A DNA stretch of 64,000 nt, taken from Myxococcota bacterium. GTDB taxonomy: Bacteria > Myxococcota_A > UBA9160 > UBA6930. Shown here piece after piece: positions 2,728-9,591 of the stretch; positions within the stretch are counted from its first letter, which is position 1; each line of letters opens with the position of its first letter. The translations under genes were made by a program, and so were the position numbers. Below the pieces are notes generated by a model. It searched no databases and was not told where the DNA came from. It worked only from the letters and a program-made list of their open reading frames with translations. The stretch is taken from contig DATBRS010000237.1 in NCBI GenBank assembly GCA_036560185.1, forward strand, positions 523 through 64,522. The letters are read 5' to 3'.

Positions 2728-2964
2728 CTACGAGACGCGCGCGCGCGCCTGAACGATGTCGCTCTCCATGATCGTCTTGCGCTTGTCCGCGGCGGCGAGC
2801 GCGTGGGCCTCGCGAGCGAGCCGCGCGATGTAGTCCTCCGCGGCGGCGACGGCCTTGTCGATGGCGTCGCCCGAGACGCGCATGCCGTCCCCGTGCTTCG
2901 CCAAGAGTCGCTTCACAACCGCATTCGGTAGATCGCTCACAGGGTCCTCCCGAGACGGGCGCAT
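2728..2964 (-). CDS. Bacterial histone-fold protein (archaeal HMf / Bdellovibrio Bd0055 HBb-like singlet)
   Basis: 78-aa ORF. LPNAVVKRLLAKHG-DGMRVSGDA-IDKAVAAAEDYIARLAREAHALAAADKRKTIMESDIVQA aligns by eye to HMfB (recalled from memory: [59 protein letters not shown]), giving helix, RVS loop, long helix, RKTI loop, helix. ATG 2964 lies 1 nt after the larC stop. An internal GTG at 2940 has a strong SD (GGGAGGA, 4-nt spacer) and would give 70 aa. Confidence 0.8.
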   Translation of the reverse strand: MRPSREDPVSDLPNAVVKRLLAKHGDGMRVSGDAIDKAVAAAEDYIARLAREAHALAAADKRKTIMESDIVQARARVS

Positions 2965-2965
2965 C

Positions 2966-4330
2966 CTACGAGCGGCGGCTCCGCGTTGTCAACGCGCGCA
3001 GCGCAGCTTCTTCCGCCGCGCGCATCACTTCTCCGAGCGGAAGCCGGCGCGCCTGGGCAATGCGCTTCGCGTCGTCGTACTCGGCGGAGGCGCTCGCTCG
3101 CCCCTGCGCGTCGTAGGCGAGCTTCACGCGCAGGCGTCCGTGGGGGGTCGCGACGCGTACGATCTCGCGCGGGAGGAGCAGGCGCTCCGCCTCCTGCACC
3201 CGCACGCCGAGCGAGCCGGTCTCGCGCAGCACGAGCTGCGCCAGCTCGCCGCGCCGGTGCGGCGGCGCGATCACCGTCAGCGCGTAGCCCGGCCGATTCT
3301 TCTTCATCTGGGCGTGGCTGAGGGCGACGTCGAGCGCCCCGGCCGCGAACAGCCGCTCCAGCGCGAGGTCGAAATGCTCGGGCACGAGGTCGTCGAGGTG
3401 CGCCGTGAGCACGCTCACGGTGTCGCGCAGCACGCCGCCGTCGTGGCCGAGCACGGCGCGCAGCACGTTCGGCATCGGGCCGGGGCGATCGTCGCCCGCC
3501 CCGTGGCCGATCGCATCGATCGTCAGCCCCGGCAGCGCGCACCACTCGTCGACGATCGTGCGCAGGATCGCGGCGCCGGTCGGCGTCACCGTCTCCCAGG
3601 CGACGGGCGCCGGCGCGACCGGCGCTCCCCGTAACAATTCGAGCACGGCCGGCGCTGGCAGCGGCAGGCGCCCGTGCGCCGTCTCGACCGTGCCGTGCCC
3701 GAGCGCGGCCGGCGTCGAGGTCACGCGCTCGACGCGCAGTAGCTCCAGCGCCAGCGCCGCGCCCGTGATGTCGACGATCGCGTCGAGCGCGCCCACCTCG
3801 TGGAAGTGAACGCGCGCGACCGGGACGTCGTGCACGCGCGCCTCGGCCTCCGCGAGCGCGGCGAAGATCGCCTGCGCGCGATCGCGCACCGCGGACGCGA
3901 GCTTCGCGCGCGCGAGCAAGCGGCGAATCTCGTCGTAGCGCCGGCCGCCGCCCACGTGCGTGTGCGCGTGATCGTGATCCCCGGCGTGGGAATGTGCGTG
4001 AGCGCCGTGGGTGTGCGAGCCGTCGCCGGCCGCGGCTCTGATACGTCGTGCCTTGGGACGCCTGCGCTCCACACTGCGCGCGATCACCTCGACGTAGCGC
4101 GCTGCGAGCGCGCCGCGTTTCACTCGGGTGACGCGCAGCCGATGCGCGATGCCGAGGCCCGCGAGCCCGGCCTCGAGCTCGCGCAGCGGCAGCCCGGCGT
4201 CGAGCAGCGCGCCGAGGAACATGTTCCCCGAGATCCCGGAGAACGTGTCGAGGTGGAGCACGGTGCGCGGCCGTGCGCCGGCGTGGCCCGGCGCCGCGAC
4301 GCGCGACTTCGGCTGGCGGCGCTTCGCCAC
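2966..4330 (-). CDS. larC: Nickel-pincer cofactor biosynthesis protein LarC (DUF111 nickel insertion / cyclometallase)
   Basis: 454 aa with a GTG start. N-terminal LDTFSGISGNMFLGALLDAGL. His-rich metal-binding stretch HTHGAHAHSHAGDHDHAHTH. Length is typical of LarC. Confidence 0.9.
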   Translation of the reverse strand: MAKRRQPKSRVAAPGHAGARPRTVLHLDTFSGISGNMFLGALLDAGLPLRELEAGLAGLGIAHRLRVTRVKRGALAARYVEVIARSVERRRPKARRIRAAAGDGSHTHGAHAHSHAGDHDHAHTHVGGGRRYDEIRRLLARAKLASAVRDRAQAIFAALAEAEARVHDVPVARVHFHEVGALDAIVDITGAALALELLRVERVTSTPAALGHGTVETAHGRLPLPAPAVLELLRGAPVAPAPVAWETVTPTGAAILRTIVDEWCALPGLTIDAIGHGAGDDRPGPMPNVLRAVLGHDGGVLRDTVSVLTAHLDDLVPEHFDLALERLFAAGALDVALSHAQMKKNRPGYALTVIAPPHRRGELAQLVLRETGSLGVRVQEAERLLLPREIVRVATPHGRLRVKLAYDAQGRASASAEYDDAKRIAQARRLPLGEVMRAAEEAALRALTTRSRRS

Positions 4331-4331
4331 G

Positions 4332-5081
4332 TCAGCTCCGATTGATCAGCGACGCGACCACGGCCGCGCCGAAGCCGTTGTCGATGTTCACGACCGAGAC
4401 GTTCGAGGCGCAGCTCGACAGCATCCCGAGCAGCGCCGCGAGCCCGCCATAAGAAGCGCCGTACCCGATGCTGGTCGGCACCGCGATCACCGGGCGCGCG
4501 ACCAGCCCGCCCACCACCGAGGGCAGCGCGCCCTCCATGCCCGCGATCGCGATCAGGACGCGCGCGGCGCGCAGCGCTTCCGACTCCGCGAGCAGGCGGT
4601 GCAGGCCCGCGACGCCGACGTCCGCGATCAGCTCGACCTTGTTGCCGAGCTTCGCCGCGACGGCGGCGGCCTCGCGCGCGACCGGCAGATCCGCGGTGCC
4701 CGCGCACACCACGACGATCGTGCCGACACCCGTGATCGCGACCTCCGCGGGCCCGTACCAGAGCAGGCGCGCGCCTGGGTCGTAGTCCCCGATCGGCTCG
4801 AGCGTGAGCACGCGCTCCGCGGCGGCGTGCTCGACACGCGTGACGAGCGCCGTCTGCCCGGCCGCGCGCAGCGTGCGCACGATGCTCGCGATCTGCTCCG
4901 GCGTCTTCCCCAGCCCGAACACCACCTCCGGCATGCCCTGCCGCAGCGCGCGATGCGTGTCGACGCGCGCGTGCTCGGAAGCGACGAAGGGAAGCTGCGC
5001 GAAGTGTTCGAGCGCGTCGTCCGTCGACAGCGCACCGTCTCGGACGGCTTCGAGCAGCGCGCGTACGCGATCGGGATTCAT
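4332..5081 (-). CDS. larB: Nickel-pincer cofactor biosynthesis protein LarB (PurE-like NaAD carboxylase/hydrolase)
   Basis: 249 aa. PurE-like core VVCAGTADLPVAREAA...AIAGMEGALPSVVGGL...VIAVPTSIGYGAS. The stop lies 1 nt before the larC start. Confidence 0.9.
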   Translation of the reverse strand: MNPDRVRALLEAVRDGALSTDDALEHFAQLPFVASEHARVDTHRALRQGMPEVVFGLGKTPEQIASIVRTLRAAGQTALVTRVEHAAAERVLTLEPIGDYDPGARLLWYGPAEVAITGVGTIVVVCAGTADLPVAREAAAVAAKLGNKVELIADVGVAGLHRLLAESEALRAARVLIAIAGMEGALPSVVGGLVARPVIAVPTSIGYGASYGGLAALLGMLSSCASNVSVVNIDNGFGAAVVASLINRS

Positions 5082-5133: not shown

Positions 5134-5721
5134 CTAGGCGATCGCCTCGGGCGCCCAGACGAGCAGCGCGCGCAGCACGTCTCCGCGGTCGAACAGCTCG
5201 ACTTCGATGCACAACACCGGGCGCTCGCCCGCGCGCTCCGCCACGCCGGCGGCGAAGGCGCCGGTGCCGTCGACGAGCGCCAGCTGCGGCGGCGACGGCA
5301 GCACCACGACGCCGAGCAGTTCGCCGATCGCGGAGAGCGCGTGCGACGCGAGGATGTTGCCCACTTCGCGCAGCGCCGACTCCGCCTGCAGCGGCGCGCC
5401 GGCAGATTCTCCGAGCAGCATCCGAAGCAGCGCGCCGCGGCTCGCGGGCGTGAGCAGCAGCGCGAGCGTGCCGCCGAGCCCGCCAACGACGTCGAACAGA
5501 ACTCCCGTGCCTTCGCGCGCCTCGCAGCCGAGCCGCGCCGCAAGCTCGGCCCCACGGTCGCCCGCCTCGAGCAGGCGCGCGGCCGGCAGGCCCATCTCGA
5601 TCGGCCGAGCGAGCAACGTCGCGAGTGCGCCGGCGGCGTGCCCGGCCCCGATGCTGGTGAGCTCGCACAGCCGGTCGACCGCGCGCGCCTGGGCTTCGTC
5701 GTGGTGGGCCGCGGCGGTCAT
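5134..5721 (-). CDS. CheC-like chemotaxis phosphatase family protein
   Basis: 195 aa. CheC-type motif SALREVGN followed about 20 aa later by P (LPSPP). A first, degenerate copy is DRLCELTSIG. The start overlaps the cheA stop by 4 nt (ATGA). Confidence 0.75.
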   Translation of the reverse strand: MTAAAHHDEAQARAVDRLCELTSIGAGHAAGALATLLARPIEMGLPAARLLEAGDRGAELAARLGCEAREGTGVLFDVVGGLGGTLALLLTPASRGALLRMLLGESAGAPLQAESALREVGNILASHALSAIGELLGVVVLPSPPQLALVDGTGAFAAGVAERAGERPVLCIEVELFDRGDVLRALLVWAPEAIA

Positions 5722-7345
5722 GCGAGCGGGTTCAGGTCCAGCAAGAACACCGGCACGCCGTCGGAAAGAACCGTCAGGCCGGCCAAGCCGCGCGCGCGCG
5801 CCAGCAGGCGCGGCAGCGGCTTCACGGTGAGCTCGCGCTGGCCGTACAAGCGCTCCACGAGCAGGCCGACGCGCTCCTCGCGTACCTCGGCGAGCACGAG
5901 CGGCGCGACTCCCGTCTCGCGCCGGGCGCCGAAGCCGAGGCGCTCCGCGAGGTCGATCACGAGCAGCGGCGCATCCTCGACGATCGCGAAGCGCTCGCGG
6001 CCCGCGTCCTCGATGGTCGCCGCGTCGACTTCGACGACGCGCTCCACTTTCGCGATCGGCAGCGCGACGATCTCTCCCGCCACGCCGAGCAGCAGCATGC
6101 GCTGCACGGCGGCGGTCACCGGCACGAGCAGCACCGTCGTCGTGCCGAGGCCCGGCTGCGAGGCGAGCTCGACGCTGCCGCCCAGCGCCTCGATCGTCGC
6201 CTTGACCGCGTCCATGCCGACGCCGCGGCCGGAGATCTTCGAGACCTCGCCCGCGGTCGAGAGGCCCGGCCGGAAGACGAGCGCGGCGATCTGATCGGGC
6301 GGTAGGTCGTCCGCGAGGTCGCTGTGCAGGAGGCCTGCCTCGATCGCGCGGCGCTTCACCTTCTCGAGATCGATGCCGCGGCCGTCGTCGCTCACCGCGA
6401 TGCGCACGTGGTCGCGATCGCGGCGCGCGTCGATCACGATGCGGCCCGCCGCGGGCTTGCCCGCGAGCGCGCGCGCGTCGGGCGTCTCGAGGCCGTGATC
6501 GACCGCGTTGCGCACGAGGTGCACGAGCGGATCGCCGATGCGATCGAGGATCGCGCGATCGAGCTCGAGCTCGGCACCGCGCAGCTCGACGTCGACCTGC
6601 TTGCCGAGCTCCCGGGCAATCTCGCGCGCGAGCCGCGGCAACGGCTCGACCGCGCGTAGCAACGGCGCGGTGCGCAGCCCGAGGCCGCGGCGCTGCAAGT
6701 CGGCGACGACGCGATCCATGCGGTCGAGGCCCGCGACCAGCTCCGCCGAGGCGCCGCGCTCGCGCTGCGCCATGCCGCGCAGCTGGCTCGACGAGAGCAC
6801 CACTTCACCGACCGACGAGAGGAAGCGATCCAGCGTCTCCGCGCGCACGCGCAGCGTCGGCGCGGGCGCAGCCGCGGTCGGTGCTGAAGCGGGGGGCGCT
6901 GGCGCGACCGGCTCGAGGGGCGCGGCGTCGCTGGCGACAGCGGCCGCGCTCAGGCTTTTTTTGGCGGCGGCCCGCTCGGCGCGCCGGACAGCTCGGCGAT
7001 CAGTCCGGGATCCGCGGCGGGCGGTTCCCCGGTTGCGCGCAGCGCGCCGACCATGCGCTCGAGGCCTTCGAGCGCGCGGAACAGCAGTGCGCTCGCGCGT
7101 GCGTCCACGCTGCCGGCGGCGCGCTGGCTCGCGAGCAGGTCTTCGAGGCGATGCGCGAGCTCGGTGGGGCCCTGATAATCGAGCGAGGCCGCCATGCCCT
7201 TGATCGAGTGGGCCATGCGGAAGGCGACGTCGATCGCCTCCGCGTCGGCGGCGTTCTTCTCGAGCGCGAGCAGCGCGCGGCTCAGGTCCGCCAGGTGCTC
7301 GGTCGCTTCCTCGAGGAACAGCGCTCGGTACTTGGCGAGGTCCAT
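5718..7345 (-). CDS. cheA: Chemotaxis histidine kinase CheA, interrupted: P1/Hpt in one frame (7345..6950), P3-P4-P5 in the -1 frame (6956..5718)
   Basis: The Hpt ORF (131 aa) has the H-box FRMAHSIKGMAASL. The second frame carries the dimerisation, HATPase (DPLVHLVRNAVDHG, GRGVGMD) and CheW-like P5 domains. The frames meet at an A7 run (6956..6962). A -1 shift gives a fused product of about 542 aa with junction GPPPKK/SLSAAAV. Confidence 0.85.
6920..6962 (-). other. Candidate -1 frameshift cassette inside cheA (or a homopolymer assembly error)
   Basis: Minus strand reads CC A AAA AAA GCC TGA. The zero-frame heptamer is A_AAA_AAA (6962..6956) with the stop 2 codons later. After the 6-nt spacer GCCTGA comes the hairpin GCGCGGC(6949..6943)-CGCT-GTCGC-CA-GCGAC-GCCGCGC(6926..6920). 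Confidence 0.4.
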
Positions 7346-7493
7346 TTGGGTTGGGCTCCGTTCGCCTGGGGCTCACTGCGCGCGGTCTGCGCCGCTTGTC
7401 GCGGCGCGGGCCGCTTGCGGCTTCTCGAGCTGCGGTCGACCGCTGCGCCGCCTTGTCGCTTCCGAGCCCGAGGGCAGTCGTGCGCGCTCTCGA

Positions 7494-7862
7494 CTACTCG
7501 GACTTCTCGACGACCTTCGCGAGCGTCGTGATCACGGCGTCGGGCTTGAAGGGCTTCACGATGAAGTCCTTGGCGCCCGCTTGAATCGCCTCCATCACGA
7601 GCGTCTCCTGGCCGAGCGCGCTGCACATCACGATCGTCGCGCTGGAATCCTCGGAGCGGATCGTGCGCACGGCATCGATGCCCGAGCGCTTCGGCATCAC
7701 GATGTCCATCATCACCAGATCGGGCCGCAGCTTGCGGAACTTGTCGACGACCTCGACACCGTCGGAAGCTTCGCCGACCACCTCGTAGCCCTCGGGCTCG
7801 ATGATGTCGCGAATCATCTGACGCATGAACGACGCGTCGTCTGCGATTAGGACCCTCTTCAT
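7494..7862 (-). CDS. cheY: Chemotaxis response regulator CheY
   Basis: 122-aa single REC domain: MKRVLIADDASFMR...DLVMMDIVMP...IVMCSA...AKDFIVKPF. Confidence 0.95.
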   Translation of the reverse strand: MKRVLIADDASFMRQMIRDIIEPEGYEVVGEASDGVEVVDKFRKLRPDLVMMDIVMPKRSGIDAVRTIRSEDSSATIVMCSALGQETLVMEAIQAGAKDFIVKPFKPDAVITTLAKVVEKSE

Positions 7863-7879: not shown

Positions 7880-8329
7880 CTACTCGCCGCTCAGCGATCC
7901 CTCGACCAACATCAATGCGCGCGCCAGCAGGCGGCGCGGATCGAGCACGTTCAGCACGCGGCCCTCGTGCGGCCGGCGCTCCGCCACCGGGCTGTCGCTG
8001 TGCGACGGCGCGGCGCCGCCGGCCACGAGGCCCAAGATGCGGTCGACCGGCAATCCGTAGCGGTCGGGGTCGTCGGCATCGCCGGCGAGCACGAGCAGGC
8101 GCGTGGGCGCGCTCTCGCCCGAGAACTCGAGCAGTGCGCCGGCGAACACGACCGGCAAGGCATCGCCGTGGTGGTTCACCACGCCAAAGCTCGCGCGCGG
8201 CAGCATCGGCACCGGCGCGACACGCGCGCTCTCCGCGACCTCGACGACGCCGGAGATCGGCAGCGCGAACAGCGCCTCGCCGAGCTCGAAGGCGAGCAGA
8301 CGATTCTCGCTGACGTCGAGCGAGCTCAT
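7880..8329 (-). CDS. cheW: Chemotaxis coupling protein CheW
   Basis: C-terminal 149 aa of track ORF 7880..9613, starting at [25 protein letters not shown]. CheW-like fold sequence. Its ATG overlaps the mcp stop (ATGA, 8326..8329). Confidence 0.9.
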
Positions 8330-9591
8330 CGCGTGCCCCCTTGGCGCGCGCGCTGCGTGGCGTCGGCGAGCTCGCGCGCGACCGCAGCCAGCTCCCGCGA
8401 CGATTCCGCGATCTCCGCCATTGCCTCGATCTGTCGCTCCGCGGCGCCCGCCACGAGATCGACGGACGTGACGTGCGCCGAAGCGACTTCGGCGACCTCG
8501 CTGATCGCCGCCACCATGCGCTCGGCGCCCTGAGTCTGCACGTCGGCCTGCTCGAAGATCTCCTCGGCGCGGGACGACGCCTCGCCGACGGCGGCCTGAA
8601 TCTGCCCGAGCGAATGCGCGATCGTGTTCACGTCGTCGCGGCCTTCGGCGATCACCTGGCCCGAGTGGCGCATCTCGTCGGCGACGTTGTGCGTGTCGCT
8701 CTCGATCTCGCCGACCAGCTTCGAGATTTCGTCGGCGCTGCGCTGCGCGCTCTCGGCGAGCTTGCGAATCTCGTCGGCGACGACCGCGAAGCCGCGCCCC
8801 GCTTCGCCGGCGCGCGCGGCCTCGATCGACGCGTTCAGCGACAGCAGGTTGGTGCGCGACGCGACGCTCGTGATCAGCTCGGTGATCTGGTGCACGTGCC
8901 GCGTCTTCGCCTCGAGCTCGAAGACCATCTTGCCGGTGTTGTCCATGCGCTCGAACACGTTGCGCATCTTCTCGATCGCGAGGCGCGAGACGTCGACGCC
9001 GGAGTTCGCCTTCTGATTCGCCTCGGCCGCGAATCCGAACGCCTCGCGGGCGCGCGACGCGTTCGCCTCGATCGCCGAGGCGATCTCGGCGGACAGCCGC
9101 TGCACGTCGGCGAGCAGCGTCTTCTTGTTCTCGCTGCCCTTCGCGAGCTCGCCGATCGTCTCGGCGATCTCGCGCGCGGTCGCGTCGGCGCGCTTCCCGC
9201 CCGAGGCGAACCCGTCGACGGCGCGCTGCAGGCCTTCCGATACCGCCTGTGCGTCGCGCGAGAGCGCACCCAAGCGGTCGCCTAACAACGCGGCGCCCGC
9301 GGCCAGCTCGTGGGCCTCGTCTTCGACGCCGGAGGCCGCGCCCAGCGCGTCCAGCGCGGCGTAGTCCCCGCGCGACGCGCGGCGCACCAGCTGCGCGGCA
9401 TGCGCGTGCTCGCTGACGAGCCGGCTGCCCAGCGCCGCACCCGTCGCGCCGCCCACGATCACGGCGAGCGCGTTGAGCAGCGCCGCGTCGCCAGAAATCC
9501 CGAGCGCGTGCGCGAGCGTGGGCACGGCCAACGCCGTTCCGGCAGCCGCCAGCGAGCCGAGGGCGAACTTGTGGACGAGGGAGAGACGCAC
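8326..9591 (-). CDS. Methyl-accepting chemotaxis protein with a membrane hairpin and no periplasmic sensor domain
   Basis: Highly conserved MCP signalling core [35 protein letters not shown]. The upstream part of track ORF 8326..10062 overlaps thiL out of frame and is Arg/Ser-rich. The proposed start is the GTG at 9591 ([18 protein letters not shown]...). The start is uncertain. Confidence 0.85.

Follow-up and report, generated by a model that had tools for sequence, protein, structure and literature searches.

Conserved recoding sites in ordinary chromosomal genes of bacteria are few, for instance those of dnaX, prfB, copA, csoS2 and the Mg-chelatase genes. Three architectures are described for dnaX: in Escherichia coli a frameshift leads to the short product, in the 'reversed' species it leads to the long one, and in Thermus RNA polymerase slips on a long run; altering one nucleotide can swap the products' roles (PMC5009743). 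The subject of this analysis is a 64,000-nucleotide stretch of a Myxococcota genome (assembly GCA_036560185.1, contig DATBRS010000237.1, positions 523 to 64,522; hereafter, the window), in which the gene for the chemotaxis histidine kinase CheA is split between two reading frames at a run of seven adenines (A7). The junction shares with the tau/gamma site of dnaX a shift site made of poly-A lysine codons and placed between domains, a short N-terminal and a long product encoded by one gene, a 3′ stem–loop about 6 nt downstream, a 5′ Shine–Dalgarno (SD)-like element, weak in the window, and a stop codon directly past the site. Unlike dnaX, which codes for a subunit of the clamp loader, the gene encodes a chemotaxis kinase; its heptamer reads A_AAA_AAA instead of A_AAA_AAG, and the cheA site is known from sequence alone. 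Programmed recoding of some kind is very probable at this site, and −1 ribosomal frameshifting as its main route in the window is given a probability of about 0.6–0.65.

E. coli makes two forms of CheA, CheA-L and CheA-S; the latter originates from an internal start and is devoid of the phosphotransfer domain P1. The locus in the window resembles this pair, as well as CheA3/CheA4 of Rhodobacter sphaeroides, in encoding at least two polypeptides derived from CheA and in placing P1 and kinase core on separate molecules able to transphosphorylate. CheA-S, however, is the opposite fragment, CheA3 and CheA4 are encoded by separate genes, and neither system employs frameshifting. P1 and core can act on separate polypeptides in other systems, and it has been argued that splitting a kinase alters the dynamics of the response (PMC3591291). 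According to the account of Meydan et al. 2017 cited in PMC7558416, the −1 frameshift in E. coli copA frees an N-terminal domain as a small protein, the CopA(Z) chaperone, which works with the full-length one. As far as that account goes, full-length CopA comes from standard decoding and the short form requires the shift, as would be the case in the in-frame cheA relatives described below, and the site and stimulator differ from those of the window. A further comparable case is the Mg-chelatase poly-A cluster (Antonov et al. 2013, PMC3711429), a chromosomal non-mobile gene with a −1 split at A7–A11 that varies across genera and with an efficiency that rises with run length; cheA is another gene and adds an association of short runs with stimulators and of long runs without them. 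Literature searches that combined cheA with programmed or ribosomal frameshifting or with transcriptional slippage yielded no report of the site. The sole cheA match was a +1 hotspot predicted in E. coli cheA (FSscan, PMC2790909), which shares the gene name and a frameshift and is otherwise unrelated: the direction, site and organism are different, the gene is unsplit, and the site is neither conserved nor required. A major recoding review and the GeneTack survey mention neither cheA nor chemotaxis. Recoding by such a mechanism is known already; what appears to be new is the gene family, together with its full set of dnaX-like modes.

The zero-frame open reading frame (ORF) at 6950..7345(-) encodes 131 amino acids that comprise the P1 (Hpt) domain and a short linker, ends with GPPPKKA-TGA and represents the product of standard decoding. 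Pfam Hpt is found at residues 6–104, the histidine lies in an AHSIKG motif, and structural matches include 1TQG and 2LD6. The remainder of CheA, consisting of a linker, the P3 dimerisation domain, the P4 HATPase domain and the P5 CheW-like domain, continues in the −1 frame (5718..6956(-)) within an ORF that spans 5718..7376(-) and overlaps the P1 ORF; this part also has Pfam and PDB matches, and it can be reached only if the frame shifts by −1 or the mRNA carries an additional A. Joined at the A run, the two frames give a 542-aa protein with the junction ...GPPPKK-SLSAAAV... and the Pfam domains Hpt (6–104), H-kinase_dim (164–219), HATPase_c (272–411) and CheW (417–541). The fused protein matches solved structures of CheA P1 and P3–P5, with about 50 residues between P1 and the core; no P2 domain was detected in it by Pfam and PDB comparison. 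P1 with its phosphorylatable histidine, P3, P4 and P5, together with a location in a che cluster beside genes for a methyl-accepting chemotaxis protein (MCP), CheW, CheY and CheC, identify the gene as cheA.

The junction reads CCA AAA AAA GCC TGA GCGCGGC..., with the run at 6956..6962(-) forming A_AAA_AAA in the zero frame and the zero-frame TGA (6950..6952(-)) one codon past it. This is the sole A7/T7 in the 64 kb, where 0.08 would be expected; the GC content is 0.72–0.73. The original prediction, made from the letters of the window, had described a cheA split at A7 into a 131-aa Hpt ORF ending in GPPPKKA and a core in the −1 frame, a heptamer of the X_XXY_YYZ class followed by a 6-nt spacer containing the stop, and the rarity of such a run in GC-rich DNA; the analysis bears out all of this. 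It had also proposed a GC hairpin, which is found 6 nt past the heptamer as a 12-bp GC-rich stem–loop (6920..6949(-)), a candidate 3′ stimulator at a distance within the 5–9 nt usual for frameshift cassettes. Its 7-bp outer stem, GCGCGGC/GCCGCGC, is as proposed, but in place of the inner GTCG/CGAC stem RNAfold favours CGCUG/CAGCG with a UCGC loop and a 2-nt bulge.

We infer the following course of events. The recoding site would lie in the linker between P1 and the kinase core. Ribosomes decoding normally would stop one codon past the A7 run and release free 131-aa P1, while a fraction of them would move one base backwards on A_AAA_AAA as both lysine tRNAs pair anew with AAA. The 12-bp hairpin probably holds ribosomes at the slip site, and those that have shifted would complete the 542-aa P1–P3–P4–P5 CheA. 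The same protein would result if RNA polymerase occasionally inserted an additional A, a route that probably accounts for a minor share. In this way a single gene would supply free phosphotransfer domain and complete kinase in a set ratio. Such an outcome, a free Hpt protein and a full-length CheA from programmed shifting, was one of three readings offered by the original prediction and is supported by the comparative data.

A homologue scan with the kinase core, with one genome per GTDB species, returned 41 Myxococcota loci with P1 upstream, and in 39 of these the core is exactly −1 relative to P1. Thirty-eight further species-level genomes (core identity 55–92%) are split like the window. 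The run lies just before the P1-frame stop; in these 38 non-redundant species it is A7 in 25, A8 in six, A9 in two and A10 in five, and A_AAA_AAA stands in the zero-frame phase within it in all 38. Only two further A/T runs of at least 7 are present in 322 kb of these GC-rich loci. The zero-frame stop follows the run after 1–12 codons in all split (class I) loci, against a background median of 38 codons. Past the run, split genes encode in the −1 frame a peptide (KKSPE...) that matches the one which unsplit relatives carry in frame, and the linker from the run to P3 is open in the −1 frame in every species. Both frames are under selection: measured against relatives at a synonymous divergence (dS) of 0.4–0.7, the ratio of non-synonymous to synonymous substitution rates (dN/dS) is 0.10–0.15 for P1 and 0.12–0.15 for the core. 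Site and frame arrangement are conserved as in a frameshift cassette, and by this comparison the candidate element is a family-wide feature, a point absent from the original prediction.

A scan of metagenome contigs with the family alignment latched onto universal CheA motifs and collected mostly unrelated CheAs. Two of the loci found, both split, are relevant: L088, which is canonical, and L087, which is an exception considered below. The unrelated loci were reused as a control, and in 111 of 111 the P1 histidine motif is in frame with the core.

The two other readings in the original prediction were a one-nucleotide deletion in the assembly and a pseudogene or phase-variable switch. If an assembly or sequencing error had removed one A from a normal A8, the only thing to speak for it would be the general error-proneness of homopolymers. 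The identical A7 junction and the exact 131-aa ORF occur in five other public assemblies (one NCBI metagenome-assembled genome (MAG), three JGI metagenomes and one Logan assembly), which differ from the window at 0.1–1.2% of positions elsewhere (98.8–99.9% identity). The same split thus appears in six independent assemblies and in about 40 species, from several assemblers and with chromosome-level MAGs included, and in 0 of the 111 control loci. The probability left to an error of this type is close to nil.

Phase variation or recent inactivation would mean that replication slippage toggles A7 and A8 and so turns chemotaxis signalling off and on. Homopolymer tracts are classic sites of phase variation (PMC3711429), relatives in frame are mixed on the tree with those out of frame, and L087 resembles a tract minus one A. 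Against this, no mixture of ON and OFF tract lengths is found in close genomes: six of six assemblies of the window's species have A7, and exactly A7, the OFF register, is kept by 25 species. All 39 species-level loci (the window's species and the 38 others) need −1, with no mix of +1 and −1. A KK label, the signature expected of an in-frame A8, is carried by 2 of the 97 full-length relatives on the tree, and the one of these with DNA in hand, L171, has A9. The core ORF is intact in every split species and under strong purifying selection, with no relaxation and no secondary disruptions of the kind that mark a pseudogene. The low dN/dS of about 0.1, the intact cores and the near-absence of in-frame A8 contradict a pseudogene or a switch, which is very improbable. 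Judged from these sequences, an assembly error and a pseudogene or phase switch can both be regarded as effectively excluded.

Another explanation is that the gene is truly split, with P1 and core made as separate polypeptides that act in trans like CheA3/CheA4 of R. sphaeroides, the core having its own start and the A run being a mere scar. Gene callers do annotate a 376-aa core, beginning at a GTG that encodes the Val of a conserved RV motif at the opening of P3, and functional split CheA systems are known (PMC3591291). But the called start position is occupied by GTC, GTT, GTA or ATT in 12 of 39 species, no ATG, GTG or TTG lies between the run and P3 in six of 39, and an SD-like motif precedes a candidate core start in only four of 39; there is no conserved start codon for the core. 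A scar would not preserve A7–A10 in DNA of 70% GC over dS >1, nor is its presence reconciled with a run-to-P3 linker that stays open in the −1 frame in all species. The linker peptide SLSAAAVASDAAPLEPVAPAPPASAPTAAAPAPTLR, encoded in the −1 frame, could not arise from a core begun at the annotated GTG. Separate polypeptides are accordingly given little chance. Termination–reinitiation at the P1 stop was also considered and rejected, as no start codon is conserved nearby.

In public annotations, these genes appear as a 372–389-aa 'CheA' that starts from the RV-motif Val (in the window, 5718..6848(-); P0001–P0021 and P0120) and a separate Hpt protein. The calls of an orphan Hpt and a truncated CheA are a systematic mis-annotation across the lineage; such entries with a 376-aa CheA, or flags of a pseudogene, mis-state the chemotaxis capacity of these Myxococcota.

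Slippage by RNA polymerase on the template T7 would yield exactly the same protein, a point absent from the original prediction. In this case recoding would be programmed at the level of transcription: an added A would give A8 mRNAs, translated to full-length CheA as in Thermus dnaX, and the hairpin and the SD-like motif would be irrelevant. The structural data bear on this choice. Folding energies were compared for the 42 nt at +4 to +45 past the run and for their own dinucleotide shuffles, with the 42 nt upstream of the run as control. The mean z over all 39 loci is −1.81 for the downstream segment and −0.05 for the upstream control; the downstream mean is −2.04 at A7/A8 loci and −0.76 at A9/A10 loci. 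In the window, the downstream segment has z = −2.56 and is stabler than 99% of its own shuffles and 94% of same-size windows in its own gene (6th percentile), a result that hinges on the segment folded, since a 71-nt stretch including the A run is unremarkable (z = −0.69). In 26 of 39 loci the downstream segment ranks within the stablest 10% of windows from its own gene, a level that the upstream one reaches in seven of 39 (median percentile 0.39). SD-like motifs (GGAGG, GGGGGG) are located 6–12 nt upstream of the run; they fall in the top decile of their own gene in 19 of 39 loci and are mostly missing in A9/A10 loci. An Rfam scan of the region gave nothing meaningful and no described frameshift element.

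The structured side is thus the downstream one, whereas the known stimulator of polymerase slippage, a hairpin in the nascent RNA, lies 5′ of the run (PMC5009743). The polymerase has yet to make the downstream RNA when it reaches the run, so the downstream structure, together with the SD-like element, whose enrichment is a ribosomal feature, favours the ribosome. Slippage of the polymerase is efficient at runs of at least 9 (PMC5009743), a length that the A9–A11 relatives possess and that the window, with only A7, where polymerase slippage is low, does not. On the other side, the runs of the family range from A7 to A11, its long-run members lack hairpins and SD-like motifs, and L087 has a need (+1/−2) that slippage could satisfy and simple −1 frameshifting could not.

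The in-frame members of the family also speak for a transcriptional contribution. Six in-frame relatives with available DNA have an A9–A11 run at the same linker position, followed within 2–10 codons by a −1-frame stop, for which the background median is 273 codons; a P1-only product would therefore arise if one A were added or the frame slipped by −1. That in-frame relatives retain a run longer still is a further point absent from the original prediction. Three other in-frame relatives have no run. The in-frame A9–A11 loci show no strong hairpin (z from −1.4 to +1.6), and the SD-like motif is missing in five of the six. In the family as a whole, A7/A8 runs are followed within a few bases by a stable hairpin and, in many cases, preceded by an SD-like motif, and A9–A11 loci are mostly without both. 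Stimulators at short runs and none at long ones are expected if long runs slip unaided; in E. coli, cassettes with A7, A9 and A11 gave 10, 40 and 63% frameshifting (PMC3711429). In-frame genes are nested among the split ones in a neighbour-joining tree of the core, where the latter occupy two or more deep clades; the arrangement has therefore switched several times. From the three classes of locus and the pattern of run length and stimulators, the cheA family mirrors the three known dnaX modes, namely those of E. coli, of the 'reversed' two-ORF Chlorobium type and of Thermus thermophilus (A9), including long runs without stimulators.

In our reading, the short-run members, the window among them, use mainly −1 ribosomal frameshifting and the long-run members mainly polymerase slippage. 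That transcription is mainly responsible in the window itself is unlikely, although it is the strongest of the competing explanations. In the window's subclade, the inner stem varies in sequence yet still pairs, and an invariant outer stem with a varying, paired inner one is compatible with a conserved structure, though it does not prove one. A distant subclade of ten species (L030, L032, L034–L036, L040, L043, L044, L046 and L052) has a 9-bp hairpin at about +14..+35 that is 96.7% paired and contains compensatory changes at two pairs; GGGGGG (GGGGG in L046) lies 6 nt upstream of the run. This hairpin begins 1 nt after the zero-frame TAG in nine of the ten loci. Positioning of hairpins by the stop codon rather than by the run was considered as a rule; it fits two subclades and fails for L013, L014 and L016, where the stop is inside the stem. 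For an outer helix around the distant-subclade hairpin, which would cut the spacer to about 4 nt, pairing reaches only 60%, and this helix was rejected.

Several observations weigh against ribosomal frameshifting or reduce the force of the comparison. The outer stem of the window's subclade is invariant in close relatives and hence offers no covariation of its own, and the distant-subclade hairpin begins 13 nt past the run instead of the usual 5–9 nt. The window's own SD-like sequence, GAGCGGG (6971..6977(-)), 8 nt 5′ of the run, is weak (−4.9 kcal/mol, 19th percentile), and the corresponding position in relatives is taken by GGAGG or GGGGGG. In E. coli, A_AAA_AAA shifts less readily than A_AAA_AAG (PMC5009743). 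L087 (PVMS01069074.1, 1697..1703) needs +1/−2 and not −1, with its A7 in the phase CAA AAA AAG; it retains an upstream GGAGGG motif and a strong hairpin, and resembles a canonical A8 site from which one A has gone missing, whether by mutation, by variation within the population or by an error of assembly. Conservation of the heptamer phase could be plain inheritance, since an indel would break the frame relation, and the across-locus statistics take no account of shared ancestry. No product has been observed, and all carriers are uncultured MAGs.

If this recoding is real, a central signalling kinase joins the short list of recoded chromosomal genes, and one family provides a natural series (short runs with stimulators, long runs without them, in-frame and out-of-frame arrangements) for studying how frameshifting and slippage replace each other in evolution. 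The conservation suggests that a whole lineage deliberately makes free P1 beside CheA, which would be a new route to a 'split kinase' architecture. The likeliest role of free P1, though a speculative one, is to carry or buffer phosphate towards CheY after its phosphorylation in trans, with the CheC phosphatase as the balancing activity. A wider and rather doubtful proposal is that signalling can be tuned through the proportion of free P1 to full-length CheA. Shift efficiency at the rare AAA-AAA codons might track physiology, for instance through the supply of lysyl-tRNA(UUU), the effect of temperature on the hairpin or the growth rate; excess P1, phosphorylated in trans by the array-bound kinase, might diffuse as a phosphocarrier or buffer and thereby reshape both gain and adaptation in a CheA without P2, and the lineage might have repeatedly swapped ribosomal and transcriptional control.

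The other genes of the che cluster in the window are those for the MCP (8326..9591(-)), CheW (7880..8329(-)) and CheY (7494..7862(-)), all upstream of cheA, and for a CheC-family phosphatase (5134..5721(-)), which is downstream and overlaps the cheA stop. After the cluster (MCP–CheW–CheY–CheA–CheC) there consistently comes an AIR-carboxylase-like (larB-type) gene, in L085, L086, L167, L169 and L171 as well as in the window. A Ni_insertion (larC-type) gene comes next in the window (the two within 2966..5081(-)), L085 and L086, and the linkage holds even at about 60% identity. Directly after the larC-like gene, the window contains a gene for a 78-aa histone-fold protein (2728..2964(-); Pfam Histone / CBFD_NFYB_HMF, E about 1e-10), which is present at the same position in L001–L003 and L085 and may be a bacterial histone. 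The MAGs of L007, L008, L018, L028, L031, L037 and L044 are labelled Spirochaetales or Spirochaetaceae despite a che cluster of the Myxococcota type; their closest relatives are labelled Myxococcota or Deltaproteobacteria, and the labels are likely erroneous. ARAGORN predicts an 88-nt tRNA-Thr(CGT) at 7933..8020(+), antisense within cheW, which is probably a false positive in GC-rich DNA.

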